Origin: Candidatus Acidiferrales bacterium
GTDB taxonomy: Bacteria; Acidobacteriota; Terriglobia; Acidiferrales; UBA7541
Assembly: GCA_035553255.1 (NCBI GenBank)
Contig: DATNDJ010000032.1
Span: 1,353-65,352 of the forward strand
Length of the DNA stretch: 64,000 bases
Reading direction: 5' to 3'
Both the position numbers and the translations under genes were made by a program. The notes under the pieces are model-generated. The model saw only the letters and a program-made list of their open reading frames with translations, was not told the origin of the DNA and searched no databases. Below are positions 4,957 through 29,568 of the stretch, piece after piece. Each line of letters opens with the position of its first letter. The stretch's first letter is position 1.

Positions 4957-5033
4957 CGGGACGTGGCGCAGCCTGGTAGCGCGCACGCTTGGGGTGCGTG
5001 AGGTCGCTGGTTCAAATCCAGTCGTCCCGACCA
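4957..5033 (+). tRNA. tRNA-Pro (anticodon GGG), CCA encoded
   Basis: Cloverleaf read by eye. Acceptor CGGGACG/CGTCCCG, D stem GCGC/GCGC, anticodon stem CACGC/GCGTG with loop TTGGGGT (anticodon GGG). T arm GCTGG-TTCAAAT-CCAGT, discriminator A, then CCA. Confidence 0.9.
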
Positions 5034-11768: not shown

Positions 11769-12462
11769 GGCTGTGTCCGCGGCGTACGGCATGAGCCGCG
11801 TGCTCTACGACATTGATTTGACGATTGGGGCGGCGGAGACCGTGACGCTATTGGGCCGCAATGGCGTGGGGAAAACGACGCTGCTCCGCACGATTGCGGG
11901 CCTTCACCCCGCGTCCGAGGGCAAGATCCTTTTTGCCGGCGAGAATATCACGCGGCTTCCGGCGCATGAGCGCGCGCGGCGGGGCATCGGGTACGTGCCG
12001 CAGGGGCGCGGCATTTTTCCGCATCTGAGCGTGGAGGAAAATCTTCGGCTCGGGCTGGCCGCTCTCGCCGGGCGAAGCGAACGGAGAGACGCCGGGATTC
12101 CGGACTACGTCTACGAGCTCTTTCCCGTTCTTTCGCGCTTTCGCAGCCGCAAGGGAGGAGTGCTGAGCGGCGGGGAGCAGCAGCAGCTTGCGATCGGACG
12201 GGCGCTCGTCACGCGGCCGAAGCTGCTAATTCTGGACGAGCCGACGGAGGGAATTCAGCCGTCAATCGTGCAGCAGATTGACGAGGCCATTCAAACGATC
12301 GAGCGGGAGCTGAAAATTTCCATTCTGTTGGTGGAGCAATACCTGGAATTCGTGTGGTCCATTGCCGGGCGATTTTACGTGATGCGCAAGGGGCGCATCG
12401 CCGACGAAGGCTCGCCGCGCGACCGGGACCCGGGCTCCGTGATTCCGCTGCTCAGTATTTAA
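11755..12462 (+). CDS. urtE: Urea-type ABC transporter ATP-binding protein UrtE
   Basis: Walker A GRNGVGKTT, signature LSGGEQQQLAIGRAL, Walker B LLILDEPTEG. LivF-like and last in the urt cluster. Confidence 0.85.
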   Translation: MLALEAVSAAYGMSRVLYDIDLTIGAAETVTLLGRNGVGKTTLLRTIAGLHPASEGKILFAGENITRLPAHERARRGIGYVPQGRGIFPHLSVEENLRLGLAALAGRSERRDAGIPDYVYELFPVLSRFRSRKGGVLSGGEQQQLAIGRALVTRPKLLILDEPTEGIQPSIVQQIDEAIQTIERELKISILLVEQYLEFVWSIAGRFYVMRKGRIADEGSPRDRDPGSVIPLLSI

Positions 12463-14003
12463 TTCTGAAGCTGGCCCACCGCGGGTTCTCTCGCCGGGGC
12501 GCCGCGCCATTGATGGAAGGCTTCTTTCGTCAATTTGAAAATGGTTCGCCGATTTTCGGAGATTACCTTAAGCCACGCGAAGCGGCCCATCATGGGGAAA
12601 TAAATTCCCCTGAAGCATAGGCGCGCTATCAGGATATTTATGCGGTATCCCAGCGGCTTACGGTCGAGCGAGTCCACTGCGTGCGCTATTGCCTCCGCGC
12701 TGTAGGACCTCTCCCATCCATATTTCACCTCCGCATGGGCCTCGGGGATGGTCATCTTCAGGGGCGTGTGGGCCATCTCGAAAGGGATGAATTCTTCCCA
12801 GTGCTTCGGACGAGTGAGCCGCCCGGAAGACTCCAGCCTTTTATACAGCGGCGTGGAGGGGAGCGGGGTGAGCAGGCCGAAAATGGGGAGACCGGGCGGC
12901 CAGGTGCGCACTTCGCGCAGCGTCCGCTCCGCTACACCCGGAGTGTCGTTGTCCATGCCGAAAATGAACGAGGTGATGGCGTAGACATTGCGCTGGGCCA
13001 GGCGTTCGAGCACGGCGGCGTATTCGCCCGGCTTGTTGAACCCCTTGTTCACGTCCTTGAGATTCGCGGGATCAATGGACTCCATTCCGATGAAGATCCA
13101 TTTGCCCCCGGCAGCGGCGATCAAATCCACCAGCTCTTCGTCTCGCAATAGATTGGCGCTGATTTGCGCGACCCAATGGACCTGCGCGTTGGCGGCGATA
13201 ATGTCGCGAAGCAGGGATTTTGTGCGCTTCACGTTGATGGCAAAATTGTCGTCAATGAAAAATACGGCCATCTGGCCGCGTTCGCTTTTGGCGCGCTCCT
13301 TCAGCAAGAGCAGTTCGTTGACCACGCTTTCATTCGTGCGAAAGCGGATGGAATCACCGAAAAAGCCGGTGACGGTGCAGAACTCGCATCCATAGGGGCA
13401 TCCGCGCCCCGATTCCACCGGGATAATTCGGAATGTGCCCCAGCCCGCGCCAATCTTGGTGAGCAGAGGATGGGCGAACTTGGGAACGAGGTTGAATTGC
13501 GCCAGGTTGATCGAATCCCAGGGAATTCGCGGATAGGATTGCAACGATGGCTTGCGCTCCTGTCCGAAATCGTCCAGGGGCGCATAGATCTCCTTGAGAT
13601 TTCCGTTGGCGGCGTCCGCGACAATTTTGGGCCAGGATTCATCGGCTTCGCCAAGCGCTACGGCGTCGGCGTGGCGGCGTCCGCCATTTCGTCCGAGGGC
13701 TTCATCGGGCAGTTCCGTCACGTGAGGGCCGCCCATCACGACGGGCACACCCGCGCCGCGTACGGCGTCGGCCACGCGATAGGCTTTGGCGATCATGCGC
13801 GTCATCGCGCCAATGCCAACCAATCCGATATTTTCCTCGCGCACGAATCGGGCGATGGCGTGTTCGTCCATGGGCTGCGCATTGCCGTCGATCAGCAGCA
13901 CTTCATGTCCGGGCGGAGTCAGCGATTGCAGCAGAAACATCCAGAGGTGCGGCATAAAATTGCGGGTGACGCCGTTATCGGGGTTGTACAACAAGATCTT
14001 CAC
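12459..14003 (-). CDS. B12-binding-domain radical SAM protein (class B rSAM with DUF4070-like C-terminus)
   Basis: N-terminal cobalamin-binding-like domain (MKILLYNPD...VGIGAMT...VVMGGPHVT). Radical SAM cluster motif GRGCPYGCEFCTV. Long C-terminal extension. The substrate is unknown. Confidence 0.75.
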   Translation of the reverse strand: MKILLYNPDNGVTRNFMPHLWMFLLQSLTPPGHEVLLIDGNAQPMDEHAIARFVREENIGLVGIGAMTRMIAKAYRVADAVRGAGVPVVMGGPHVTELPDEALGRNGGRRHADAVALGEADESWPKIVADAANGNLKEIYAPLDDFGQERKPSLQSYPRIPWDSINLAQFNLVPKFAHPLLTKIGAGWGTFRIIPVESGRGCPYGCEFCTVTGFFGDSIRFRTNESVVNELLLLKERAKSERGQMAVFFIDDNFAINVKRTKSLLRDIIAANAQVHWVAQISANLLRDEELVDLIAAAGGKWIFIGMESIDPANLKDVNKGFNKPGEYAAVLERLAQRNVYAITSFIFGMDNDTPGVAERTLREVRTWPPGLPIFGLLTPLPSTPLYKRLESSGRLTRPKHWEEFIPFEMAHTPLKMTIPEAHAEVKYGWERSYSAEAIAHAVDSLDRKPLGYRINILIARLCFRGIYFPMMGRFAWLKVISENRRTIFKLTKEAFHQWRGAPAREPAVGQLQN

Positions 14004-14169
14004 TGGTTTTCGACATCCTTTCGTTGCTGCCGGGCCGCATCCGGACTTTCGTCCTTCATGAAGACGTGAATTTGTTGACTGGCGAAGGGCCGTGGCTGGG
14101 CGGCTGCGGGATACCCGCGGTTCTCAGCAAGGCGAATCATATCCCAAGAAAGCGGGGCCGCTATCAAAT

Positions 14170-15114
14170 TTAATGCGGACTATGCCCACCAGAGCGTTCG
14201 GCAAGTGTCACAAGTGCGAATAGGGCCTGATTGACCGGCGTGGGCACGCCAAGTTCGGCGCCGCTGCGCGAGATATACCCGTTGAGCGAGTCTATCTCGG
14301 TGCGCCGGCCGCGCTGCAAGTCCTGAGCGGTGGAGGAGCGCGCCTCCTTCATCTGCGTGGCAATTTTCATCGCGCCATCCATGGCCGCTTCCGGAGTTTC
14401 CACGCCGGGCAGGATTATGCCGGCCGCGCGCGCGACCGCGAATACCTCCTCGACAGCCGCACGCACCGTGCGGCGGGCCTCGGCGCTTTCCGCGACTTCG
14501 ACGTAACGTGCACGGCCCAGCGCGGAAATGGCGTTCAGGGCGCAATTCCAGATGAGCTTCTTCCACAGCTCGCCCTGGATATTTTCGGAGACGCGGCAGG
14601 GGATGCCGGCGCGCACGAAGATTTCGGCGAGGCTGGCAGTGCGTTCGCCGGGCGGCCCGATTACGAGATCGCCGCGCGCGACGTGCTTGATGTGGCCCGG
14701 CGCCGGCACCGAAGCGGCCACGTAAACGGCCGCGGCCAGCGCCTCGATATTCGCCGCAGCGCGAAGCTCCGCGGCATTCTCGACGCCGTTCTGGAGGCTC
14801 ACGACGGCCGCGCGATGGGAGAGAGCCGGCGCAAGCGCTTGCGCGGTCGCACGATTGTCCGTGGTCTTCACGCAGAAAAGGACCAGATCCGCGCCGCGGG
14901 CGGCAGCAATTTCGGTGGAGGCTTCGACGCGCACGCGCTCTCGAAAGTTTACAGCGTCCAAAAGCAGTCCTTCGTGCTGCACAGCTTCCACAAAGGCTTT
15001 GCGCCCGATTAGGATTACCGGCGCGCCGGCACGAGCAAACATCCCGCCAAAATAGCCGCCGACAGCGCCTGCACCAACGACGGCGACGCGCGGCCAGGTC
15101 TGCGCGGCCGTCAT
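14170..15114 (-). CDS. panE: 2-dehydropantoate 2-reductase (PanE/ApbA family)
   Basis: Rossmann motif VAVVGAGAVGGYFGGMFARAG and C-terminal SSTAQDLQRGRRTEIDSLNG, typical of ketopantoate reductases. Its ATG overlaps the hisA stop (ATGA at 15111-15114). Confidence 0.8.
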   Translation of the reverse strand: MTAAQTWPRVAVVGAGAVGGYFGGMFARAGAPVILIGRKAFVEAVQHEGLLLDAVNFRERVRVEASTEIAAARGADLVLFCVKTTDNRATAQALAPALSHRAAVVSLQNGVENAAELRAAANIEALAAAVYVAASVPAPGHIKHVARGDLVIGPPGERTASLAEIFVRAGIPCRVSENIQGELWKKLIWNCALNAISALGRARYVEVAESAEARRTVRAAVEEVFAVARAAGIILPGVETPEAAMDGAMKIATQMKEARSSTAQDLQRGRRTEIDSLNGYISRSGAELGVPTPVNQALFALVTLAERSGGHSPH

Positions 15115-15827
15115 TTTCCGGCTACCTTTCCGGCGATTTTCCCGGTTCGGGCCCCGATGCGCCCCGTGTACATGGCCATGCCGACAGCCGCATCCATGCC
15201 GAGCTTTTCGAGGGCGCGCACTTCGCGCATGCTGCGAATGCCGCCGGCCGCCGTGATCGGCAGGCGCGTGACGCGGCGCAGGAGGCGAAACGCATCGAGA
15301 TCGGTGCCCTTCATGGTTCCTTCATGGTCCACGAACGTGGAAAGAAATCCGGAGCAGAAGGGCTCGAGGGCGGGAATTACGTCTTTGGGACGCAGCGCCA
15401 GCCGCTCGCGCCAGCCGCGCACTACGATGCATCCTCGGTCGGTATCGAGGGCGATTATCACCCGGCGACGGCCGACGCGCTGCGCGAGGCGCGCCAAGAA
15501 GCCGCGTGCGATTGCGCCATCGTGAAACGCCGCGCTGCCAATGATGATCTTCTCCGCGCCCCAGGAAACGATACGCTCCGCGCGCGCGACGGTGCGAATT
15601 CCGCCGCCGACGCGCACCTTCATTTTCGCCGTTCTGCACAAACGCTGGATCCACCGGGCATTCGACCCGCGGCGCATTGCGGCGTCCAAATCAATCACGT
15701 GGAGCACGGGATAGCCGCGAAAGCGATCGAGCAGGCCGATCACATTCTCCACGGCAAGGGCACGGCGCCTGCCGCGCACCAGTTGCACGGCGCGGCCATC
15801 CTGCAGATCAATGCACGGGATAATCAT
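15111..15827 (-). CDS. hisA: ProFAR isomerase HisA
   Basis: MIIPCIDLQDGRAVQLVRG N-terminus and (beta/alpha)8 HisA/HisF-type repeats. Position in the his operon. Confidence 0.85.
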   Translation of the reverse strand: MIIPCIDLQDGRAVQLVRGRRRALAVENVIGLLDRFRGYPVLHVIDLDAAMRRGSNARWIQRLCRTAKMKVRVGGGIRTVARAERIVSWGAEKIIIGSAAFHDGAIARGFLARLAQRVGRRRVIIALDTDRGCIVVRGWRERLALRPKDVIPALEPFCSGFLSTFVDHEGTMKGTDLDAFRLLRRVTRLPITAAGGIRSMREVRALEKLGMDAAVGMAMYTGRIGARTGKIAGKVAGK

Positions 15828-16588
15828 GCGCTTAGCCGGACGGGGACGCCTTGGCCTGCAAGGAATTTTTTCAGCGCCAGGATGGATTCAATTTCCGCGT
15901 GGAAGATCGAGGCCGCGAGGGCCGCTTCCGCACGGCCGCGCTCGAACACGTCCAGAAAATCTCGCGGCGTGCGAGCGCCGCCAGAAGCAATTACGGGTAT
16001 CCGCACTGACTTTGCGATTGCCGCCGTCAGCTCGCAATCGAAGCCGCTGCATGTGCCATCGCGGTCAATAGAGGTGAGCAGAATTTCGCCGGCGCCGCGC
16101 TCGATGCCTTCGCGCGCCCAAGCCATCGCGTCCTTGCCCGTGGCCTGCGTGCCGCCACGCACGAAGACGGCCCAGGCGCCGCCTTCGCGCTTCACGTCCA
16201 TCGAAAGCACCACCGCCTGCGAACCGAATTGCCGCGCCAGCTCCGAAATCAGCTCCGGGCGCTCGACCGCCGCCGTATTCACGGTCACTTTATCCGCCCC
16301 CGCGCGCAGCACGGCTTGCCCTTGATCGAGCGAACGAATTCCGCCGCCCGCCGTCAGCGGAATGCGCAATTGTCGAGCGACGCGACGGATCGTATCGAGA
16401 AAGGTCGCGCGGCCTTCGCGCGAGGCGCTGATATCGAGAACTACCAGTTCGTCGGCGCCTTCGCGGTTGTAGCGCGCCGCCAGCGCCTCCGGATCGCCGA
16501 TATCGCGGAGGCCCTCGAATTCAACTCCCTTGACGACGCGACCGGCATCCACATCGAGACAAGGGATGATGCGGCGCGCGAGCGTCAT
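15824..16588 (-). CDS. hisF: Imidazole glycerol phosphate synthase cyclase subunit HisF
   Basis: From ATG 16588: MTLARRIIPCLDVDAGRVVKGVEFEGLRDIGDP...SGGA. This is the canonical HisF. The 82 codons upstream in the ORF-track call run through hisH in another frame. Confidence 0.9.
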   Translation of the reverse strand: MTLARRIIPCLDVDAGRVVKGVEFEGLRDIGDPEALAARYNREGADELVVLDISASREGRATFLDTIRRVARQLRIPLTAGGGIRSLDQGQAVLRAGADKVTVNTAAVERPELISELARQFGSQAVVLSMDVKREGGAWAVFVRGGTQATGKDAMAWAREGIERGAGEILLTSIDRDGTCSGFDCELTAAIAKSVRIPVIASGGARTPRDFLDVFERGRAEAALAASIFHAEIESILALKKFLAGQGVPVRLSA

Positions 16589-17190
16589 CGCGATACCCCC
16601 AGGAAATTTCGCAGCACCTGCGCGCCGGCTTCGCCCGATTTTTCCGGATGGAATTGCACGGCCAGCAGGTTTCCACGCTCGATTACGGCGGCGAATTCCG
16701 CGCCATGGTCGCAGACGGCCGCTCTCGCTTCGCAGTCTCCCGGCGCGGCATAGGAGTGCGCAAAATAGAAATATGCGTCCTCCGGAACGCCGCACAACAG
16801 CACACTTTCGCGCAGGCGCCGCACCTGATTCCATCCGATGTGCGGCGATTTCACGTGGGGCGGCAGCGCTCGCACCGCGCCGGGCAGAAATCCGAGGCCG
16901 CGCGCTTGCGGCGATTCGTCGCTTATGGAAAACATGACCTGCAATCCGAGGCAGATTCCGAGGATCGGAACGCCCGATTGATGCGCCGATTCCAGCGCCG
17001 CGCCGAGAGAGTCCTTTTGGAGCCCCGCCACAATTGCGTCGAAATGGCCGACGCCGGGAAGCACGATCGAGTCCGCATCGGCAAGCTCGGCGCCGCGCGC
17101 GGCAAGATTGGTTTCCGCGCCCGCCGCCCGCAGCGCGCGTTCTACGGAGGGCAGATTCCCCGCGCCGTAATCAACGATCGCGACCTTCAC
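16585..17190 (-). CDS. hisH: Imidazole glycerol phosphate synthase glutaminase subunit HisH
   Basis: GTG 17190 gives VKVAIVDYGAGNLPSVERAL...LPGVGHF...GICLGLQ...AVQFHPEKS (class I amidotransferase Cys/His). The GTG overlaps the hisB stop (GTGA). The 432-aa ORF-track call is an artefactual upstream extension. Confidence 0.85.
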   Translation of the reverse strand: MKVAIVDYGAGNLPSVERALRAAGAETNLAARGAELADADSIVLPGVGHFDAIVAGLQKDSLGAALESAHQSGVPILGICLGLQVMFSISDESPQARGLGFLPGAVRALPPHVKSPHIGWNQVRRLRESVLLCGVPEDAYFYFAHSYAAPGDCEARAAVCDHGAEFAAVIERGNLLAVQFHPEKSGEAGAQVLRNFLGVSR

Positions 17191-17786
17191 AATAGCCCCT
17201 TCGTGGAAGGCAGCACGCGGCGCAACTGGCGATCGCGGGTGACGGCGAAACGCAGCGCCTTCGCAAACGCCTTGAAGATGGCCTCGACCTGATGGTGCGA
17301 GGATCGCCCGTACAAAAATCGCAGATGCACGTTGGCGCCGGCCGCTTGCGCGAACGCCTGGAAAAAATCCTCGAGCAATTCGGTGTGGAAATCGCCGACG
17401 CGCTGCGCAAGCGGTTTCCATTTGCACACGCAATGTGCCCTGCCGGAAAAATCGAGCGCCGCCGCCGCGAGCGACTCGTCCATGGGCATCAGGAAGTATC
17501 CGGCGCGGAGGATGCCGCGCTTGGCGCCGAGCGCCTGCTTCACGGCTTCGCCGAGCGCGATGCCCGCGTCTTCGACGGTGTGATGCTGGTCCACGTCGAG
17601 ATCGCCGCGCGCGGTGAGATCCAGATCGAGGGCGCCGTGCCGCGCGACCTGCTCGAGCATGTGATCGAAAAAACGAATGCCGGTCCGGACGCGCGCGCGG
17701 CCCTGCCCATCCAAATTTACGCGCACGCGAATCTCGGTTTCGCTGGTCACGCGGTGCACGGTTGCCTTTCGCATTGGCGCCCTCAT
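17187..17786 (-). CDS. hisB: Imidazoleglycerol-phosphate dehydratase HisB
   Basis: RVTSETEIRVRVNLDG...FFDHMLEQVARHG...DQHHTVEDAGIALG motifs. The start is ATG 17786 (overlaps the hisC stop) or ATG 17774 (MRKATVHR...). Confidence 0.9.
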   Translation of the reverse strand: MRAPMRKATVHRVTSETEIRVRVNLDGQGRARVRTGIRFFDHMLEQVARHGALDLDLTARGDLDVDQHHTVEDAGIALGEAVKQALGAKRGILRAGYFLMPMDESLAAAALDFSGRAHCVCKWKPLAQRVGDFHTELLEDFFQAFAQAAGANVHLRFLYGRSSHHQVEAIFKAFAKALRFAVTRDRQLRRVLPSTKGLL

Positions 17787-18868
17787 CTGAACGTCCTCGG
17801 TATGGGCTTCCTCGGAAGGATTCGCTCGAGCTCGCGCAGGAATCGCCGCGCTTGCCGGGTGGTACCCAGCGTGATGCGCACATATCCCTCGCCGCCGAAA
17901 TCGCTCGAGCGATCGCGCACGAGCACCCGTTGTTTCGCGAGAGCAGTCACTATTTCGCCCGCCCGCTCACCGAATTGCGCGAGTACGAAATTCCCGGCGC
18001 TCGGGAAGTAACGGATGCCGAGCCTGGCAAGGCCGCGTTCGAGGTGCGCTCGTCCGCGCCGCGTCTCGCGGATGGTTCGCGCGATAAACGCGCGGTCCCC
18101 CAGCGCCGCCTCCGCTGCCGCGAGCGCCGCAACGTTCACCGGATAAGGCGACTGCGCCTTGCGCATCTGCGCCGCCAACCCCTCTTGCGCGAAGATGCAC
18201 CCCAGCCGCAAGCCCGCCATGCCGGCCGCCTTCGAGAAAGTGCGCGTCACCACGAGATTTCCATATCGCCGGAGCCACGGCAGCACCGTCATGTCCGAAA
18301 ACTCGTGGTAGGCCTCGTCCACAACGATGATGGTGCGCGGCGCCGCCTTCAGGATTCGCCGCAGTTGCGCGTAACTCGCCAGATGCCCGGTGGGGCTATT
18401 CGGATTCGCCAGAAAGAAAAGTCTCGGTCTGCGACGCAACGCGGCCAGTATCGCTGGCATTGGAATTTCGGATGCGGCGCCGTAACGCAAGGTTTCGATG
18501 CGCGCGCCCGCAAGCTCGGCGTAGAAGCGGTACATCGCGTAGGTCGGCTCGGCGAGCAGTACGCGCTCGCCGGCGTCCACGAACGTCTGCACGAGCAGAT
18601 GCAGCGCCTCGTCGGTTCCGTTGGTCAACAGCAACTCGCCCGTGCGCACGCCGAGCGCCTTCGCCATTTTCGCGCGGACGCTTCCCTGCTCCGGATACAT
18701 CGAGATCGCGTCCGCACCCAATTTTGCGAGGGCGCGGCGCACGGCCGGCGAACATCCGAGCGGATTTTCGTTGAAATCCAGCCGCACCTTGCCGAAGCGG
18801 CCTTCGAGCGGCGGATAGTACGGCCGCATTCGCTCGACAGCCTTACGCGCGCGAATCGTGCGCTTCAT
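17783..18868 (-). CDS. hisC: Histidinol-phosphate aminotransferase HisC
   Basis: From ATG 18868: MKRTIRARKAVERMRPYYPP...VRLDFNENPLG...TRTFSKAAGMAGLRLG (PLP-Lys motif). It overlaps the hisD stop (ATGA). Confidence 0.9.
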   Translation of the reverse strand: MKRTIRARKAVERMRPYYPPLEGRFGKVRLDFNENPLGCSPAVRRALAKLGADAISMYPEQGSVRAKMAKALGVRTGELLLTNGTDEALHLLVQTFVDAGERVLLAEPTYAMYRFYAELAGARIETLRYGAASEIPMPAILAALRRRPRLFFLANPNSPTGHLASYAQLRRILKAAPRTIIVVDEAYHEFSDMTVLPWLRRYGNLVVTRTFSKAAGMAGLRLGCIFAQEGLAAQMRKAQSPYPVNVAALAAAEAALGDRAFIARTIRETRRGRAHLERGLARLGIRYFPSAGNFVLAQFGERAGEIVTALAKQRVLVRDRSSDFGGEGYVRITLGTTRQARRFLRELERILPRKPIPRTFR

Positions 18869-20118
18869 CGCCGCAGCGCCCCTGCGCGGCGATGCGCCTC
18901 GAGCCCTTCGGCCGCGGCCATTGCCTCGACGACAGGCGCCAACCGCCGCATTCCCTGCCGCGAAAGCTCCTGGACGCTGATGCATTTTACGAAGTCCGCG
19001 GTGGAAAGCCCGCCGCGCGAACGCGCCGCACCCCCCGTGGGGAGCACGTGATTCGTCCCACTCGCGTAATCACCGGCAGGTTGCGCGCTCCAATCGCCGA
19101 GGAAAATGCTGCCTGCCGAATGAATTTGCTTCAGCATGCCGCGGGCGCGACCAGCGAGCGTCAAATGCTCTGGCGCGAACTCGTTCACGAAGCGCACGGC
19201 CGCCGCCGCGTTCGGCGCGATGAGCACGAAGCCATTCTGCCGGAGCGAGCGCCGCGCAAGATTCGCCGGTGGCAATTCCACAAGCTGGCGCTCGATTTCC
19301 GCCGCTGTCGCAACCGCGAATTTTGCCGAGGTCGTCACGAAGATCGAGATCGCGTCCGGATCGTGCTCCGCCTGCGCGATTAAATCGGCGCCCAGGAGAC
19401 GCTGGTCGCCACCTTCCGCGAAAATGACCGCCTCGGTAGGCCCCGCCAACATGTCTATCGAGCAATCCGCGCTCACCAACCGCTTCGCGGCCGCGACGAA
19501 CCGATTGCCCGGCCCGCAAATCTTATCCACGCGCGGAATTGATTCCGTGCCGTAGGCCAACGCAGCAATCGCCTGCGCGCCACCGATACGCGCGATCCGC
19601 CGCACGCCCAGCAGGGCAGCCGCGGCCAGCAACGGCGCGCCGGGCTGCGGGCTCGTCACCACGATCTCGCCCACGCCTGCTTCCTGCGCCGGAATGGCGG
19701 TCATCAGCAGCGTTGAAACGAGGGAAAATCTTCCGCCGGGAAGATAACATCCGACGCGCTCGATGGGCTGGACGCGCTGGCCCACGCGTACGCCACGCTC
19801 GACTTCGAAGTTCCATTCCTGCGGCCGCTGGCGCCGCGCGACCGCGCGAATATTTTGCACCGCATGGTTCACGGATGCGAGGAAGTGGCTCGGAACTCCG
19901 CGTGCGGCTTCGCGCAATTCCGCGGGCGTGACCCAGAGACTTTTCTTATCCAGGTTCACGCGGTCGAATCGCTTGGCCCAAGCAAAAAGAGCCGCATCGC
20001 CACGACGGCGCACGTCCGCGATGATTTTCGCCGCCGCACGCTCCGCCGCGCGCGTGCGGTCGCGCCGATTCCCCAGAATTCTCGCCCGCACTGATTCCGT
20101 TAATCGTTCGGGCCGCAT
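18865..20118 (-). CDS. hisD: Histidinol dehydrogenase HisD
   Basis: From ATG 20118: ...IIADVRRRGDAALFAWAKRFD...AGPTE...QAEHDPDA...GDYASGTNHVLPTGG. This is the canonical HisD. It shares 1 nt with the hisG stop. Confidence 0.9.
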   Translation of the reverse strand: MRPERLTESVRARILGNRRDRTRAAERAAAKIIADVRRRGDAALFAWAKRFDRVNLDKKSLWVTPAELREAARGVPSHFLASVNHAVQNIRAVARRQRPQEWNFEVERGVRVGQRVQPIERVGCYLPGGRFSLVSTLLMTAIPAQEAGVGEIVVTSPQPGAPLLAAAALLGVRRIARIGGAQAIAALAYGTESIPRVDKICGPGNRFVAAAKRLVSADCSIDMLAGPTEAVIFAEGGDQRLLGADLIAQAEHDPDAISIFVTTSAKFAVATAAEIERQLVELPPANLARRSLRQNGFVLIAPNAAAAVRFVNEFAPEHLTLAGRARGMLKQIHSAGSIFLGDWSAQPAGDYASGTNHVLPTGGAARSRGGLSTADFVKCISVQELSRQGMRRLAPVVEAMAAAEGLEAHRRAGALRR

Positions 20119-20999
20119 CAGTAGACGACCTTGTTCAGCGGATATTCGACGATTCCCTCCGCGTGCGCGGATTTGAGCTTGGGGATCAATTGCCGCACGA
20201 TTTTTTCCTCGACGATGGTGCTGATCGCGACCCACCGCGGATCGCTGAGCTGCGCGATGGTCGGATTGCGCAGCGCCGGCAGCGCCGCGATGACCCCGGC
20301 CAAATCGTCGCGCCTCACGTTGAGCATGAGCCCGACGCGGCTATAGGCGCGGATCGCACCTTCGAGGAGCAGCACGATATTTTCGATCTTTTCGCGCTTC
20401 CAGGCGTCGCGCCATGCGCCTCCATTGGCGATGAACTGCGGGGCGGATTCGAGCAGCGTTTCGACCACGCGCAGGTGATTCGCGCGCAGGGAACTGCCCG
20501 TCTCCGTCACTTCCACGATGGCGTCGGCGAGTTGCGGCACCTTCACTTCCGTGGCGCCCCAGGAAAACTCGACGCGGGCCTGCACGCCGCGCTCTTCAAG
20601 ATATCTGCGCGTCAGGCCGACCGCTTCGGTCGCGATCACCTTACCTTCCAGGTCGCGCACGGTTCGCACCGGCGAATCCTCCGCCACGGCCAACACCCAG
20701 CGGACGCGGCCGAGGCTCGTCTTCGAGTAAATCAGTTCAGCCACTTCCTCAACGTGCGCGCCCGTCTCGAGGATCCAATCCTTGCCGGTTAATCCCGCAT
20801 CGAGCGCGCCGCTTTCCACATATCGCGCCATTTCCTGGGCGCGCACGAGCATGCATTCGATCTCCGGGTCGTCAATCGCGGGGAAATAGCTCCGCGAGCC
20901 GACGGAAATCCTCCAGCCGGCGCGCGCGAAAAGCTCGATGGTGGAATCCTGCAAGCTGCCCTTGGGGATGCCCAGCTTCAGCGGCTTTCTCTCGTTCAT
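20118..20999 (-). CDS. hisG: ATP phosphoribosyltransferase HisG (long form)
   Basis: From ATG 20999: [29 protein letters not shown]...DLTGKDW. A C-terminal regulatory-domain-length extension is present. It overlaps the hisI stop (ATGA). Confidence 0.85.
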
Positions 21000-21385
21000 C
21001 GCGTTGTCCCCTTGCCATAGAGGTCTTCGGGCCGCGAGATTCGCTCCGCGATCACGGTGGCATCGCCGCCGCGCTCGATGCGGCGATAGAAGCAGCTGCG
21101 GTACCCTTCGTGGCACACGGCGCCGCCCTCGAGCTCGGCGCGTACCAGCAGCGCGTCCTGATCGCAATCGGTGCGCAGCTCACGCAGGCGAAGGCGCTGG
21201 CCGCTTGTCTCGCCCTTGGTCCACAGCTTTTTTCGCGAGCGGCTATAGAACGTCACGTAGCCGGTATCCATTGTCCGATCCAGCGCCTCGCGATTCATGA
21301 ATCCGAGCATGAGGACGTCGCCATTCGCCGCGTCCTGGACGATAGCTGGTATCAGCCCGGCTTCCTTTTCGAAATCCAGTTCCAT
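20996..21385 (-). CDS. hisI: Phosphoribosyl-AMP cyclohydrolase HisI (monofunctional, no HisE domain)
   Basis: [25 protein letters not shown]...[17 protein letters not shown]...DCDQDALL...CHEGYRSCF. 129 aa, preceded by GAGGGAG. Confidence 0.9.
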
Positions 21386-21459
21386 TTCTCTCCCTCATGT
21401 TTCGGCCTGCGCATTCCCAACGCGGTGCGGCGTGCCGATTCTTCTCCGCACAATCGCAT

Positions 21460-21500
21460 AAAAACAAAAAGCCCGCTGGCGCTTGCCGCGCCAGCGGGCC
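21460..21500 (-). terminator. Intrinsic terminator (attenuator) between the His leader ORF and hisI
   Basis: Minus-strand RNA GCCCGCUGGCGC-GGCAA-GCGCCAGCGGGC is a 12-bp perfect GC-rich stem (21499-21488 / 21482-21471). UUUUUGUUUUU follows directly (21470-21460). It lies 74 nt before the hisI ATG. Confidence 0.8.
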
Positions 21501-21592
21501 GATGAGTCCAGCTTTGCTTCCAGCTAGCCACACCGCCGCAGGCACGACTCGGCGTGATGATGATGGCTATGATGATGGTGCTGTGCCCGCAG
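21486..21592 (-). promoter_or_regulatory. Alternative-pairing segments 1, 2 and 3 of the putative attenuator
   Basis: Paired by eye. Seg1 CUGCGGGCAC (21592-21583) pairs with seg2 GUGCCUGCGG (21545-21536): 10 contiguous pairs, 2 of them G-U. Seg2 extended, UCGUGCCUGCGG (21547-21536), pairs with CCGCUGGCGCGG (21497-21486, terminator 5' arm plus loop): 11 of 12 positions, with 2 G-U and one U-U mismatch. Confidence 0.55.
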
Positions 21593-21598
21593 GTTCAT
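21524..21598 (-). CDS. Candidate his-operon leader peptide, 24 aa: MNLRAQHHHHSHHHHAESCLRRCG
   Basis: Not in the ORF track because it is too short. Reads ATG AAC CTG CGG GCA CAG CAC CAT CAT CAT AGC CAT CAT CAT CAC GCC GAG TCG TGC CTG CGG CGG TGT GGC TAG. Eight His in nine consecutive codons, directly upstream of a terminator and the his operon. Confidence 0.7.
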   Translation of the reverse strand: MNLRAQHHHHSHHHHAESCLRRCG

Positions 21599-21607
21599 TG
21601 CCCCACC

Positions 21608-21636
21608 AAGCTACGCAAGGCCGTCACGCTTGTCAA
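21608..21636 (-). promoter_or_regulatory. Candidate sigma70-type promoter for the his leader
   Basis: Minus strand TTGACA (21636-21631), 17-nt spacer, TAGCTT (21613-21608). Only 9 nt (GGTGGGGCA) separate the -10 element from the leader ATG. Confidence 0.4.
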
Positions 21637-21711
21637 CCGGTTTTTGGGCGCGGCCATAGCTCGTTGAGATGCTCCGCTGATTTTCCGGCGCTGGTGTTCG
21701 TGCGGCGCAGC

Positions 21712-21741
21712 TTCAAATCGCGGGAAACCGGGTGCTATAAT
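21712..21741 (+). promoter_or_regulatory. Candidate sigma70-type promoter for the ctp gene (divergent from the his leader)
   Basis: TTCAAA (21712-21717), 18-nt spacer, TATAAT (21736-21741) with an extended -10 TG (TGcTATAAT). It lies about 115 nt upstream of ATG 21858. Confidence 0.45.
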
Positions 21742-21857
21742 ATGGCTTCCGCGCACCGCAAGCTGGAATTTGTGGATGGCGGGTGCAAAGCCAGGGCGGC
21801 CCTTCGAGAACCTCGAAACAAAGGGGACAGCAAGGCCGAACCGCACAGGGATAAGGG

Positions 21858-23072
21858 ATGAGCTCTCTGACGAAAAAAATCGTGGTCATTCTTTCGGTGC
21901 TGATCTTCTGCTACACGACGGTGGGGTACGTGATGGGCCGCTCATCGGCGGACAAGGCCTTCCAGGCGCTCACTGTCTATAGCGAGGTGCTCAGCCACAT
22001 TCAGCACGATTATGTGGACGATCCCAACGTAAACTCCGTCACCAACGGTGCCTTGCACGGCTTGCTCGATTCACTCGATCCCGAATCGAGTTACCTGAGC
22101 CCGCTCGAATACAAAGATTACAAGGCAAAGCTGGCGGCCAAGTCCAAGGGCGAAGCGGGCCTGGCGCTCACCAAGCGCTTCGGGTACATCGCCGTGCTCT
22201 CCGTCCTGCCGGGCAGCCCCGCGCAAAAGGCTGGGTTGCGGCTGGGCGACACTCTCGAGAAAGTGGCCGGGTTCAGCACGGCGCAAATGGCCATCGAGCA
22301 GGCGCAATTGCTTCTGACTGGCGAGCCCGGCGCTACCGTGACGCTTTCTGTGATTCAGCCTGGCAATCCGGAGCCGAAGGAAATTCAGCTAACGCTCGCA
22401 AAGCTTCCCGCTCCGAGGCTCGCGGAAGACAAGGTTCAAGGCGATACGGCCTACCTGCGCGTGCCGGAATTCTCCGCGGGCATGTCCAAGCAGATTCGCG
22501 AGAAGCTGGTGCAGTTCAATCATCAGGGGCTGCACAAGCTGATTCTGGATTTGCGGAATTGCGCGTTGGGCGACGATCAGGAAGGCATCGCAACGGCGCA
22601 GCTCTTTATTTCATCCGGCACGATCACGACGCTGAAGGGGCAAACGGTGAGCCCCGTCGTCTCCTCCGCCGATCCCAGCAAGGTAGTGTGGACGCAACCG
22701 GTGGCCGTGCTGATCGGCAACGGAACGGCGGGAGCCGCCGAAATCGTGGCTGGCGCGATTACCGGCAATCACCGCGGCGAAACCGTTGGCGACCGGACCT
22801 ACGGCACGGCTTCGATGCAAAAGACCGTGCAACTCGACGACGGCTCGGCTCTGATCCTCACTGTCGCGAACTACTACACACCCGCCAACAAGGAAATCCA
22901 GGCCGAGGGCGTGGCCGCGAATGAAGTGGTGCAGCCACCGCCTCCGGATAATTACGCGGATATGTCGCAGGTTTATCCTCCGCTGCCGTCGAGCTCGCTC
23001 GACGATCCGGTGGTAAAGAAGGCGATGGAGATCCTGCAGCAGGGCGGAACCCCCGCGAAAAAGGCCGCGTAA
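21858..23072 (+). CDS. Carboxyl-terminal processing protease (S41 family, PDZ domain)
   Basis: N-terminal membrane anchor, PDZ-like GSPAQKAGLRLGDTLEKV, S41 core (VAVLIGNGTAGAAEIVAGAI..., LTVANYYTP). Confidence 0.85.
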   Translation: MSSLTKKIVVILSVLIFCYTTVGYVMGRSSADKAFQALTVYSEVLSHIQHDYVDDPNVNSVTNGALHGLLDSLDPESSYLSPLEYKDYKAKLAAKSKGEAGLALTKRFGYIAVLSVLPGSPAQKAGLRLGDTLEKVAGFSTAQMAIEQAQLLLTGEPGATVTLSVIQPGNPEPKEIQLTLAKLPAPRLAEDKVQGDTAYLRVPEFSAGMSKQIREKLVQFNHQGLHKLILDLRNCALGDDQEGIATAQLFISSGTITTLKGQTVSPVVSSADPSKVVWTQPVAVLIGNGTAGAAEIVAGAITGNHRGETVGDRTYGTASMQKTVQLDDGSALILTVANYYTPANKEIQAEGVAANEVVQPPPPDNYADMSQVYPPLPSSSLDDPVVKKAMEILQQGGTPAKKAA

Positions 23073-28842: not shown

Positions 28843-29568
28843 TCACGGCCTTTGCGCGCGATCCCAGCGAACCGCGACGCTCGTCAGGGTGCCCGCCGAC
28901 CCGCCGAAAGGACCAGCCGGGGAGGCAAAGCCCGCGCCCGCCAGCGCTTGAACGCGAACCACGCGACCGCTCATCTCACCGCATTCGGCCAATTCGCCCC
29001 AGGGAATCGTGGCGTGCAGATCATTGCCGGGGGCGAAGACCTGAGGCGTCTCAAAGCGTACGCCGCTGCGGGAGATATCGTCGGTCATGCATTCTTGCGC
29101 CCACGGCGCGCCAGCCGAGCGCACGAGAATCGGAAGCGCAAGCGCAACGCGCGGCGCACGGCGGCGTTCTTCGCCCTCGCGACGAGCCGCCGCAACGGGC
29201 CGATCAAATCGAAGGGCGATCGCGACGGAGGCGCCGGAATCGTGCGGCTGGACACGCAGGACCCGTGCGCGAGTCTCCGGCTGTACCCCCGCATTCGGCG
29301 CGGAATCGAACGGAAACGTGACCCATAGTCGCGAGCCTGGCGGACAGGGCTTCGCGCGGGCAACGAGCAGGCCATCGCGAGAGGCGTCTATCGTCTCGAG
29401 CGTCTCGATGCTCATGCCCAGCGAGGTATACCAGCGCATCCGAACCGGCAACGAAAGCCGCACGCGGGGATGGCTCCGCGAATCGGGCGCAATGGCGCGC
29501 GCAGGCATCATCACCTCATGGTAATCGGCGGGCATACGGAGGTCAACGGCGACGCCTTCGCCCCGCAT
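28843..29568 (-). CDS. Tandem PilZ-domain protein
   Basis: Two PilZ-like units: HPRVRL...DASRDGLLV and RRRAPRVAL...DDISRSGVRF. These are RxxxR and D/NxSxxG c-di-GMP-binding signatures. The start may be an internal ATG (29535 or 29511). Confidence 0.65.
   Translation of the reverse strand: MRGEGVAVDLRMPADYHEVMMPARAIAPDSRSHPRVRLSLPVRMRWYTSLGMSIETLETIDASRDGLLVARAKPCPPGSRLWVTFPFDSAPNAGVQPETRARVLRVQPHDSGASVAIALRFDRPVAAARREGEERRRAPRVALALPILVRSAGAPWAQECMTDDISRSGVRFETPQVFAPGNDLHATIPWGELAECGEMSGRVVRVQALAGAGFASPAGPFGGSAGTLTSVAVRWDRAQRP

Follow-up and report, generated by a model that had tools for sequence, protein, structure and literature searches.

A predicted ribosome-mediated histidine attenuator with an apparently leaderless leader ORF upstream of hisI-first operons in Terriglobia

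We identified, upstream of the hisIGDCBHAF operon of an acidobacterium, what is very likely a histidine-responsive, ribosome-mediated transcription attenuator. The element lies in a 64,000-nt stretch of DNA (hereafter the window) from "Ca. Acidiferrales" (Acidobacteriota, Terriglobia), at a site where the initial annotation had proposed ribosome-mediated His attenuation, and this reading of the sequence is well supported by conservation, covariation and ribosome-masked folding. From promoter to U-run the sensor would occupy ~175 bp. It is probably also the first representative of a family of leaderless His attenuators that is widespread in Terriglobia and previously uncatalogued, and in which the ribosome would load on a 5'-terminal AUG, although we hold this broader reading less firmly than the attenuator itself.

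The operon hisI-hisG-hisD-hisC-hisB-hisH-hisA-hisF was assigned from NCBIfam and Pfam matches and the ORF table to positions 15111–21385 of the minus strand, which also carries all leader features described below. Its his genes overlap or are tightly packed, and the end of hisF is overlapped by a panE/ApbA-like gene (14170–15114). hisI starts at an ATG at 21385, preceded by the Shine-Dalgarno sequence GAGGGAG (21390–21396, minus strand; anti-SD duplex −7.1 kcal/mol). Because the gene upstream of the leader is divergent, the terminator described below is not its own. When the whole window was scanned on both strands for a promoter, a mini-ORF and a terminator in combination, the leader site upstream of hisI was the sole return, and no second promoter-like site was found on the operon strand between the terminator and hisI. 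A 154-aa ORF spanning the leader on the opposite strand (21397–21861, plus strand) was dropped, because it is uncalled in the public annotation of identical contigs and because the RNA element explains the region.

The leader ORF (21524–21598; ATG at 21598, TAG at 21526–21524) comprises 24 codons plus UAG and encodes MNLRAQHHHHSHHHHAESCLRRCG. Direct reading bore out the proposed His run: codons 7–15 (21554–21580, leader nt 19–45) are CAC CAT CAT CAT AGC CAT CAT CAT CAC, that is, eight His in nine codons. Clustering of codons for the end-product amino acid of the operon in a short leader ORF is characteristic of leader-peptide attenuators. A comparison of orthologous regions upstream of hisI, which the initial annotation had called for, showed that the His-run ORF is kept across Terriglobia; of 66 model-aligned leaders with an ORF readable in frame, 61 had at least five His within nine codons, and 848,420 nt of sequence outside the leaders at these loci contained no such mini-ORF, so the feature exceeds chance. 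Across the family, the leader ORFs have medians of 22 aa and 7 His. Their His codons are a free mixture of CAC and CAT (181 vs 241), so the constraint falls on codon identity and not on the nucleotide; no other coding feature is as well conserved as the His-codon run, in which the wobble positions are free to vary. Third-codon identity within the Acidiferrales set was 97% in segment 2 (see below) against 78% for the His codons, a difference that points to a constraint at the RNA level.

A covariance model built in this analysis from acidobacterial leaders, R1, gave one full-length match per acidobacterial locus (71 at E ≤ 0.001 and one cut by a contig end). All these matches, in ~72 acidobacterial loci of which ~24 lay outside the training set, were directly upstream of hisI and on the hisI strand. 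The window contained a single match (122 bits), and eight non-acidobacterial hisI loci contained none. The element spans at least three orders of Terriglobia.

The 12-bp GC stem and U-run that had been noted 74 nt before hisI were confirmed. The hairpin begins 24 nt past the stop codon of the leader ORF and consists of the arms GCCCGCUGGCGC and GCGCCAGCGGGC around the loop GGCAA, followed by UUUUUGUUUUU. A terminator scan gave it 13 pairs (21500–21460), 11 of them G-C, and ranked it as the strongest such site in 12000–21700. Its 3' arm, GCGCCAGCGGGC (segment 4, 21471–21482), pairs with segment 3, and the U-run UUUUUGUUUUU (21460–21470), whose end at 21460 is 74 nt upstream of the hisI start, is conserved in the family. 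Over 48 leaders the 3:4 pairing was 88.8% paired, with five pairs changed on both sides (1/500 shuffles). An intrinsic terminator with 88.8–90% pairing and compensatory changes thus separates the leader ORF from the first gene, and the sequence predicts an attenuated transcript of ~130–140 nt with its 3' end at the U-run.

Upstream of segment 4, three further segments and a middle hairpin were delimited. Segment 1, CUGCGGGCAC (21583–21592, leader nt 7–16), is the 5' strand of the anti-antiterminator in the full-length minimum free energy (MFE) structure. Segment 2 (21536–21548, nt 51–63) comprises the last ORF codons and has either segment 1 or segment 3 as its partner; segment 3 (21485–21499, nt 100–114), made of the terminator 5' arm (21499–21488) and the first three bases of the loop, can bind segment 2 or, alternatively, segment 4. 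The pairings first found by hand held, with segment 1 (21592–21583) matching segment 2 (21545–21536) at 10/10 positions, two of them G-U, and extended segment 2 matching the terminator 5' arm plus loop at 11/12 positions with one U·U mismatch. Both were seen in RNAfold MFE structures: the full-length RNA folded into 1:2, the middle hairpin and 3:4 (−62.3 kcal/mol), and the RNA cut off before segment 4 folded into 2:3 and the middle hairpin (−41.7 kcal/mol). The middle hairpin, M (21500–21535, nt 64–99), carries the UAG (21526–21524) inside its stem; it is conserved, persists in both conformations and lies stacked beneath 2:3. The stop-codon-bearing hairpin was absent from the initial annotation, as were the TTGACA/−10 promoter with its leaderless ORF and the kinetic nature of the switch, which are described below.

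Folding under a ribosome footprint, a check that had likewise been suggested, gave the expected behavior. When the A-site was placed on His codons 7–13, 2:3 formed at 100%; placing it on codon 15 or on the UAG reduced 2:3 to 0% and removed M, so that in the folding model the antiterminator can form while a ribosome is stalled and is lost when one occupies the stop codon. The terminator state (−45.2 kcal/mol) is favored at equilibrium over the antiterminator state (−38.1 kcal/mol) by ~7 kcal/mol, and therefore 2:3 would have to compete kinetically and read-through would depend on kinetics. Similarly, nt 1–116 without a ribosome form a 2:3 helix more stable than 1:2, and the branch leading from no translation to termination would therefore be kinetic as well. 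The initial annotation had proposed folding 21386–21640; the pairing logic it expected was recovered, but the choice of region was not suitable, since the transcript almost certainly begins at or near the AUG and that region would contain untranscribed DNA. For the same reason we discounted a fold of the whole region 21455–21625 (z = −1.70, not unusual), whose structure included sequence 5' of the AUG that, from the promoter geometry, probably lies outside the transcript. Comparing the RNAduplex energies of each locus with dinucleotide shuffles gave z-scores (median −1.7 for 2:3 and −0.9 for 1:2) too weak to serve as a test in this GC-rich RNA, and we therefore used column-wise covariation instead.

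The mutually exclusive 1:2, 2:3 and 3:4 helices all covaried; in this pairing check, put forward with the original reading, each of the three exceeded the shuffled and slid controls and showed compensatory changes. In an unfiltered MAFFT alignment, 1:2 scored 0.234 vs 0.184 ± 0.011 for shuffles (0/500), and slid controls reached at most 0.136. In an alignment of 71 sequences made with a model built without the 2:3 pairing, 2:3 was 85.7% paired and scored 0.184 vs 0.145 ± 0.007 (0/500; slid controls ≤0.086), with one pair occurring as U-A 31, C-G 28 and U-G 5 times. M and the terminator together scored 0.136 vs 0.098 ± 0.007 (alignment A1; 0/500). One column of segment 2 covaries both with segment 1 (A-U 14, G-C 13) and with segment 3 (C-G 22, U-A 17). 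In the Acidiferrales set alone the 2:3 core is invariant and hence uninformative, so both leader families were required for the 2:3 covariation. The antiterminator has one strand in common with the terminator, and these data point to its evolutionary maintenance, as judged from few independent events because much of the covariation separates two clades. In the Terriglobales subtype whose leader begins MSFLSH, the His codons themselves seem to act as segment 1, and thus the 1:2 geometry is not uniform across the family.

The leader is preceded by a −35 box, TTGACA (21631–21636, minus strand), recognized by direct reading and in the family alignment, and, after a 17-nt spacer, by a −10 box, TAGCTT (21608–21613, minus strand; family consensus TAnnnT), which leaves 9 nt to the ATG. 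TTGAC(A) with at most one mismatch was present 29–34 nt 5' of the leader ATG in 61/61 loci, with an information content of ~2 bits at five positions. A generic sigma-70 scan did not pick up this promoter, because TAGCTT agrees with TATAAT at only 3/6 positions; it was found by the family alignment instead. In the family the −10 box ends 6–11 nt before the leader ATG, so the 5' UTR would be ~0–5 nt. With only 9 nt available in the window, the transcript almost certainly starts at the AUG or a few nt from it, and with the promoter so close to the ATG the leader ORF would have to be translated as a leaderless mRNA. No usable Shine-Dalgarno sequence was found for the leader ORF, 0/61 family members reaching −6 kcal/mol against the anti-SD core, unlike the hisI starts, 30/61 of which reach −6 kcal/mol or better. 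The lack of an SD together with a promoter adjoining the start codon is the arrangement of leaderless leader peptides of the Deinococcus/Actinobacteria type.

We propose that the element would work as follows. Transcription would start from the TTGACA-17-TAGCTT promoter at the AUG of the 24-codon ORF or a few nt before it. When charged tRNA-His is scarce, the ribosome would stall on the eight His codons (leader nt 19–45) and cover segment 1 (nt 7–16) or hold it apart, leaving segment 2 (nt 51–63) free. As segment 3 (nt 100–114) emerges, it would pair with segment 2, stacked on the pre-formed M (nt 64–99); the terminator would then come too late in what is presumably a kinetic competition, and the polymerase would continue into hisI. 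When charged tRNA-His is plentiful, the ribosome would reach the UAG inside M, 9 nt past segment 2, melt M and cover the 3' half of segment 2, and segment 3 would pair with segment 4, causing a stop at the U-run (~21470–21460). If the leader is not translated, 1:2 would form first and is likewise expected to favor termination. The operon would in this way respond to histidine supply.

Three other explanations were weighed. In one, which we regard as unlikely, the His ORF, 2:3 and 3:4 act as described and 1:2 has no regulatory role, having arisen because segments 1 and 3 both resemble the complement of segment 2 or from local composition. It would fit the folding of nt 1–116 without a ribosome into 2:3 and not 1:2, the weak 1:2 duplex z-scores (median −0.9), and the leaders that have no good in-register upstream segment 1 (L013, L018, L019 and the MSF type). 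However, the covariation of 1:2 in the unfiltered MAFFT alignment exceeds both the shuffled and the slid controls and includes G-C to A-U exchanges, the "LL" variants have 1:2 helices of 13–14 bp (−28 to −30 kcal/mol), and segment 1 is made long before segment 3 is transcribed.

The two remaining explanations abandon ribosome-mediated attenuation, and we consider each of them highly improbable. The leader could encode a functional His/Cys-rich peptide, for example one that binds metal or acts in trans, with the hairpin as its own terminator and the link to hisI incidental or secondary. Within Acidiferrales the His run is indeed followed by a conserved C-x-x-x-C-like tail (CLRRCG, PCPRRCG), and leader peptides acting in trans are known, for example peTrpL (PMC7298713), but the tail is wholly different in Terriglobales (…SAGVxG) while the RNA pairings are kept. 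Furthermore, its third-codon positions are more conserved (0.97) than the first and second ones (0.90), so selection appears to act on the RNA and not on the protein, and R1 matched the element only upstream of hisI. A plain terminator would also leave the eight-gene his operon promoterless, since no other promoter-like site lies on that strand between the terminator and hisI. Equally improbable is antitermination driven by a trans factor, such as uncharged tRNA-His in a T-box-like manner, an RNA-binding protein or a histidine riboswitch, with the His codons as a coincidence. There are precedents in the T-box or protein control of his genes in Firmicutes and Actinobacteria (PMC9413887, PMC3896937), but T-box and riboswitch families gave no match to the region even at E ≤ 10, the ORF and three hairpins leave no part of the ~140-nt leader unexplained, and the His-codon run, with free wobble positions, is the most conserved coding feature. 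We therefore favor the four-segment, ribosome-mediated attenuator.

Acidobacteria are among the most abundant soil bacteria, and their gene regulation is almost unstudied. In a survey, the attenuators predicted for them were almost all without an assigned function (PMC2965389). The attenuator proposed here from sequence comparison would give at least three orders of Terriglobia a concrete, testable mechanism by which histidine biosynthesis is controlled, and the covariance model could annotate an element that Rfam misses. No concept is overturned, the mechanism being the textbook one; the element adds one more independent case for the repeated origin of leader-peptide attenuators, and its apparent leaderless start is a clue to translation initiation and transcription-translation coupling in Acidobacteriota. 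If the leaderless family is real, Acidobacteria would be the third lineage, after Deinococcus and Actinobacteria, with attenuation based on leaderless translation, and histidine limitation could be read from soil metatranscriptomes with a sequence-defined reporter, the ratio of terminated to read-through transcripts.

An Rfam scan of the window at the gathering threshold returned only a tRNA and no His_leader match. The best score of RF00514 (His_leader) in the window was 29.1 bits (E = 0.012 in a 701-nt local scan), compared with a gathering score of 49, and ten diverse relatives gave no match at E ≤ 1. The expectation that RF00514 might miss the element was thus borne out. The sub-threshold match stems from the His codons and the terminator and was not seen again in the relatives, and we therefore did not file the element under RF00514. 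RF00513 (Trp_leader) scored 14.5 bits, which is noise, and weak matches to mir-6715, ar14, DnaX, Thr_leader and BTH_s1 in the region and in relatives were also taken as noise. No T-box (RF00230) or other riboswitch was detected in the window at the gathering threshold or in 21200–21900 at E ≤ 10.

In the enteric architecture the His codons lie inside the first hairpin strand, as also in the structure line of the Rfam model, and the middle hairpin is re-paired (B:C/D:E) in the antiterminated state. The window does not have this enteric-type architecture (RF00514): segment 1 is within the His run in hisL, whereas here it is upstream of the run, and the acidobacterial element keeps M in both states. 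We rejected an enteric-style B:C/D:E re-pairing of M, since on visual inspection neither half of M is complementary to segment 2 or segment 3, and no such re-pairing of the middle hairpin was seen in the MFE structures. The first gene also differs (hisG in hisL, hisI here), as does the phylum (Gammaproteobacteria vs Acidobacteriota), and the leader ORF here is without an SD and apparently leaderless. Shared with hisL of E. coli and Salmonella are a His-codon ORF directly before the his operon, an intrinsic terminator, three hairpins when terminated and an alternative pairing selected by ribosome position. The terminator of E. coli trpL is thermodynamically stronger than its antiterminator, and the choice between them is kinetic. 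trpL is alike in the 1:2/2:3/3:4 logic and in the blocking of segment 2 by a ribosome at the stop codon, and differs in the amino acid and operon and in the extra middle hairpin that lies between segments 2 and 3 here. The enteric his mechanism has been described (PMC9413887, PMC3896937), and that of trpL is summarised in excerpts of PMC4007540.

The same excerpts report 14 predicted leaderless leader peptides in Deinococcus deserti, rich in the cognate amino acid, with transcripts starting at the AUG or 1 nt before it and located upstream of genes for amino-acid biosynthesis and aminoacyl-tRNA synthetases; they mention no his example (PMC4007540). The phyla differ, and the transcription start sites were mapped in Deinococcus, whereas here the start is deduced from promoter spacing. 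In Firmicutes, His-leader attenuators have been predicted (hisZ/hisS in the B. cereus group, Peptostreptococcaceae, Erysipelotrichales), as have leader peptides in Actinobacteria (PMC2965389, PMC9413887, PMC1262725). These are likewise independent, lineage-specific His-codon ORFs with terminator/antiterminator hairpins, found by comparative genomics and unmatched by RF00514, but their sequences are unrelated, their target genes are different, they have 3–5 His codons vs a median of 7 here, and none is from Acidobacteriota. The initial annotation knew of no description for such a lineage, and our literature search likewise returned no His attenuator described in Acidobacteria, with a mention in older comparative attenuator surveys being possible. 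Taken together, the element looks like the textbook attenuator of E. coli, rebuilt independently in a little-studied phylum.

The minus-strand reading of 21300-21800 bore out every item that the initial annotation had observed in front of hisI. A 24-codon ORF, present also in the ORF table of the window, runs from an ATG at 21598 to a TAG at 21526-21524 and encodes MNLRAQHHHHSHHHHAESCLRRCG, and its codons 7-15 are CAC CAT CAT CAT AGC CAT CAT CAT CAC, as claimed. The claimed terminator, GCCCGCUGGCGC-GGCAA-GCGCCAGCGGGC followed by UUUUUGUUUUU, lies 24 nt 3' of the leader stop, and 74 nt separate the end of its U-run from the hisI ATG at 21385, which GAGGGAG precedes. With 13 pairs, 11 of them G-C, it was far ahead of all other terminator-like sites in a scan of 12000-21700. 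The upstream neighbour of the leader, an S41 peptidase gene, is divergent, and the terminator can therefore not be that of a gene upstream.

The genes downstream on the leader strand are hisI, hisG, hisD and hisC, then hisB, hisH, hisA and hisF, and their ORFs abut or overlap throughout. The hisI product is a monofunctional PRA-CH of 129 aa, and the his operon of the window showed no hisE (PRA-PH) domain. A panE/ApbA-like ketopantoate reductase gene at 14170-15114 (−) shares 4 nt with the end of hisF and probably belongs to the same transcript as the his genes. HisH occupies residues 234-428 of a mechanical 432-aa ORF (16585-17883, −), the upstream part of which covers hisB (17187-17786, −) in another frame; hisH itself must begin near 17190. 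In the hisA ORF (15824-16834), the His_biosynth match begins only at residue 88.

Three metagenome contigs encode an identical HisI. The nearest species-representative genomes (HisI 72-80% identity) are MAGs of "Candidatus Acidiferrales", Acidoferrum and Terriglobia, with Terriglobales and Bryobacterales next, which places the window in the Acidobacteriota, class Terriglobia. When 80 related hisI loci were scanned by script, the His-run ORF proved to be conserved: a His-rich mini-ORF and a GCCCGCUG-type terminator precede hisI in essentially all acidobacterial loci, and both are absent from the loci labelled Desulfobacterales, Breoghania, Bartonella, Tepidisphaerales, Pseudomonadota and Neomarinimicrobiota. 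The leader peptides are of an Acidiferrales type, M(K/N)L(L)RA-Hn-…PC(P/L)RRCG, to which the window belongs, and a Terriglobales type, M..L.H.HHHHH.H..SAGV.G. R1, a covariance model of the 1:2 (anti-antiterminator) and 3:4 (terminator) helices trained on 48 leaders, gave 71 full-length matches at E≤0.001 and one cut by a contig end, one per acidobacterial locus and always immediately 5' of hisI on the same strand; about 24 of the matched loci were outside its training set. It matched none of the 8 non-acidobacterial hisI loci and hit the 64-kb window once, at 122 bits; its other matches were weak only, on the reverse strand, to the palindromic terminator. An in-frame ORF starts from the first bases of the match in 66/71 aligned leaders (59 ATG, 7 GTG; medians 22 aa and 7 His), 61 of which reach 5 or more His within nine codons, and no His-rich mini-ORF was found elsewhere in the same loci (848,420 nt, both strands).

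The leader of L005 (2848-2985; 113 bits) has an ORF broken by a 1-nt insertion (CTGCTCGCGGGC vs CTGCTGCGGGC), after which the His frame resumes in +1. Since this MAG carries the MFD sample prefix of other long-read assemblies, the insertion is probably an assembly indel rather than the mark of a real pseudo-leader. Acidobacterial-type leaders (114 and 93 bits; HisI 72-74% identity) also occur on L025 (DATMRE010000071.1, 5.5 kb) and L027 (DATNLZ010000127.1, 73 kb), from MAGs labelled Verrucomicrobiia and Dormiibacterota, which suggests mis-binned acidobacterial contigs; horizontal transfer is less likely.

We numbered the leader from the A of its ATG (nt 1), so that the window coordinate is 21599 minus n. 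The full leader of the window folded (MFE −62.3 kcal/mol) into 1:2 (nt 7-16 with 54-63), 3:4 (nt 100-111 with 117-128) and, between them, a middle hairpin M (nt 64-99) whose stem contains the UAG (nt 73-75). When the leader was cut before segment 4, the antiterminator 2:3 (nt 51-58 with 107-114 and nt 60-63 with 102-105) stacked on the unchanged M hairpin at −41.7 kcal/mol. Across the family, truncated leaders had this long-range antiterminator as their MFE, except in some loci where a 13-14 bp 1:2 helix took its place. In a 'MSFLSHLHHHHHVHN(M/V)LAGV(S/C)' subtype (L040, L054, L060, L065, L068-L072, L075; leader nt ~20-57), the His codons themselves seem to serve as segment 1, with CCACCAUCACCAUCAUGUG pairing with CAUGUUGGCGGGGGUG; this geometry is enteric-like, whereas segment 1 of the window precedes the His run.

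Folding of nt 1-116 with a ribosome footprint masked (A-site −15 to +12, pairs spanning the ribosome forbidden) agreed with the proposed switch, in which a stall on the His codons permits 2:3 and a ribosome at the UAG prevents it. The 2:3 helix formed at 100% with the A-site on His codons 7-13, 83% at codon 14 and 0% at codon 15; at the UAG it was again 0% and M was lost too. At full length, 3:4 is the end state under every condition (M with 3:4, −45.2 kcal/mol; 2:3 with M, −38.1), so read-through can only be kinetic and requires 2:3 to form before segment 4 has been made. Classical attenuators behave in this way, and the result does not refute the proposed switch. In nt 1-116 without a ribosome, 2:3 is preferred to 1:2 at equilibrium, so that termination of untranslated transcripts would hinge on 1:2 forming first.

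Covariation was scored on three alignments, A1 (24 Acidiferrales leaders), A2 (48 leaders of both families, MAFFT) and A3 (71 model-aligned leaders), against 500 shuffles and slid controls. On A1, M with 3:4 (89.4% paired) scored 0.136 vs 0.098±0.007 in shuffles (0/500; slid ≤0.097); the 2:3 core (86.9% paired) scored 0.040 vs 0.040±0.008 (253/500; slid ≤0.059), and being nearly invariant there (23-24/24 can pair) it is uninformative either way. On A2, 3:4 (88.8% paired) reached 0.123 vs 0.078±0.005 (0/500; slid ≤0.043), with five pairs changed on both sides, a number equalled by 1/500 shuffles. The 2:3 helix (73.6% paired) reached 0.133 vs 0.107±0.007 (0/500; slid ≤0.080), one pair being C-G 22, U-A 17 and U-G 4. 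For 1:2 (72.8% paired), 0.234 vs 0.184±0.011 (0/500; slid ≤0.136) is an unfiltered count that takes in "LL" variants mis-registered by MAFFT and the subtype with a different segment 1; despite this mixed input, two pairs show G-C/A-U exchange. Because R1 lacks 2:3, A3 is not fitted to that helix, which scored 0.184 vs 0.145±0.007 there (85.7% paired; 0/500; slid ≤0.086), with one pair U-A 31, C-G 28 and U-G 5 and two more in the series G-C/G-U/A-U and U-G/C-G/U-A. Thus, all three pairings put forward initially scored above all shuffles and slid controls on A2, and 2:3 also on A3, with few independent events behind the scores since most double changes divide the two clades. One segment-2 column covaries with its segment-1 and segment-3 partners alike, as should a strand common to alternative helices. 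At the corresponding position, the Terriglobales-type terminator frequently has an A.A mismatch (15 non-pairs; A2 columns 129/143, GCCCGCUGACGCG / CGCGACAGCGGGC; e.g. L040, L053, L054, L060, L065, L068-L072, L075), and this A pairs with U in the antiterminator, where U-A is kept; the mismatch may tune the balance of the two helices.

From segment 2 to the stop, the aligned Acidiferrales leaders are 97% identical at third-codon positions vs 90% at first and second positions; in the His codons, third positions are 78% identical. Together with the mixed His codon usage of the leaders (CAC 181, CAT 241), this indicates that constraint acts on the codons in the His run and on the RNA in the ORF tail. 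Segments 1 and 2, when translated, give the "LRA" and "C(P/L)RRCG" residues that are conserved.

A promoter, absent from the initial annotation, accompanies the leader. In 61/61 loci examined, TTGAC(A) with at most one mismatch lies 29-34 nt 5' of the leader ATG, followed after a 17-nt spacer by TAnnnT, whose distance to the ATG is 6-11 nt; in the window these are TTGACA (21636-21631, −) and TAGCTT (21613-21608, −), the latter 9 nt from the ATG. None of the 61 leader ORFs has a usable Shine-Dalgarno at −6 kcal/mol or better (median anti-SD duplex +0.3 kcal/mol) vs 30/61 hisI starts (median −5.9 kcal/mol). From this short distance and the missing Shine-Dalgarno we infer that the leader peptide comes from a leaderless or near-leaderless mRNA, with the start site predicted. 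A report on Deinococcus deserti provides a precedent in 14 putative leader peptides on 5'-AUG transcripts (PMC4007540), and Corynebacterium reportedly has leaderless his operons (PMC3896937). In a window-wide scan, this promoter geometry with a mini-ORF and a terminator occurred at the his leader only. The sole other such promoter site, TTGACC-17-TACCAT, lies 6-9 nt before an ATG at 29511 / 29508 (−), from which runs an ORF of 221-222 aa that may be a leaderless protein-coding gene. A promoter-like TTCAAA-18-TATAAT with an upstream TG (21712-21741, +) faces the S41 peptidase gene (21858-23072), so that the 472-bp intergenic region would carry two back-to-back promoters.

Conservation, covariation and the modelled folding make ribosome-mediated His attenuation very probable. 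His_leader was not found in the window at the Rfam gathering threshold; RF00514 had been expected possibly to miss the element, and a permissive local scan gave 29.1 bits, where the gathering score is 49. It had no match at E≤1 in ten diverse relatives, and T-box and riboswitch models matched in neither scan of the window. The sole Rfam gathering-level match, and sole tRNA, is a tRNA-Pro (GGG) at 4957-5033 (+), unrelated to the leader. His leader peptides have been shown experimentally in Gammaproteobacteria and predicted in some Firmicutes (PMC2965389, PMC9413887), and for Actinobacteria there are predictions of leader-peptide attenuators (PMC1262725). One study notes that hardly any predicted attenuator of Acidobacteria has an assigned function (PMC2965389), and the openly searchable literature yielded no account of an acidobacterial his leader. 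The predicted attenuator is a new lineage-specific family of a well-known regulator kind, and helps annotation and understanding of regulation in Acidobacteria; conceptually, it is the textbook mechanism. Its particular features are the inferred leaderless start, a middle hairpin that is retained and contains the UAG, and an operon that opens with hisI. Though not a member of RF00514, the leader is predicted to work like enteric hisL and trpL.
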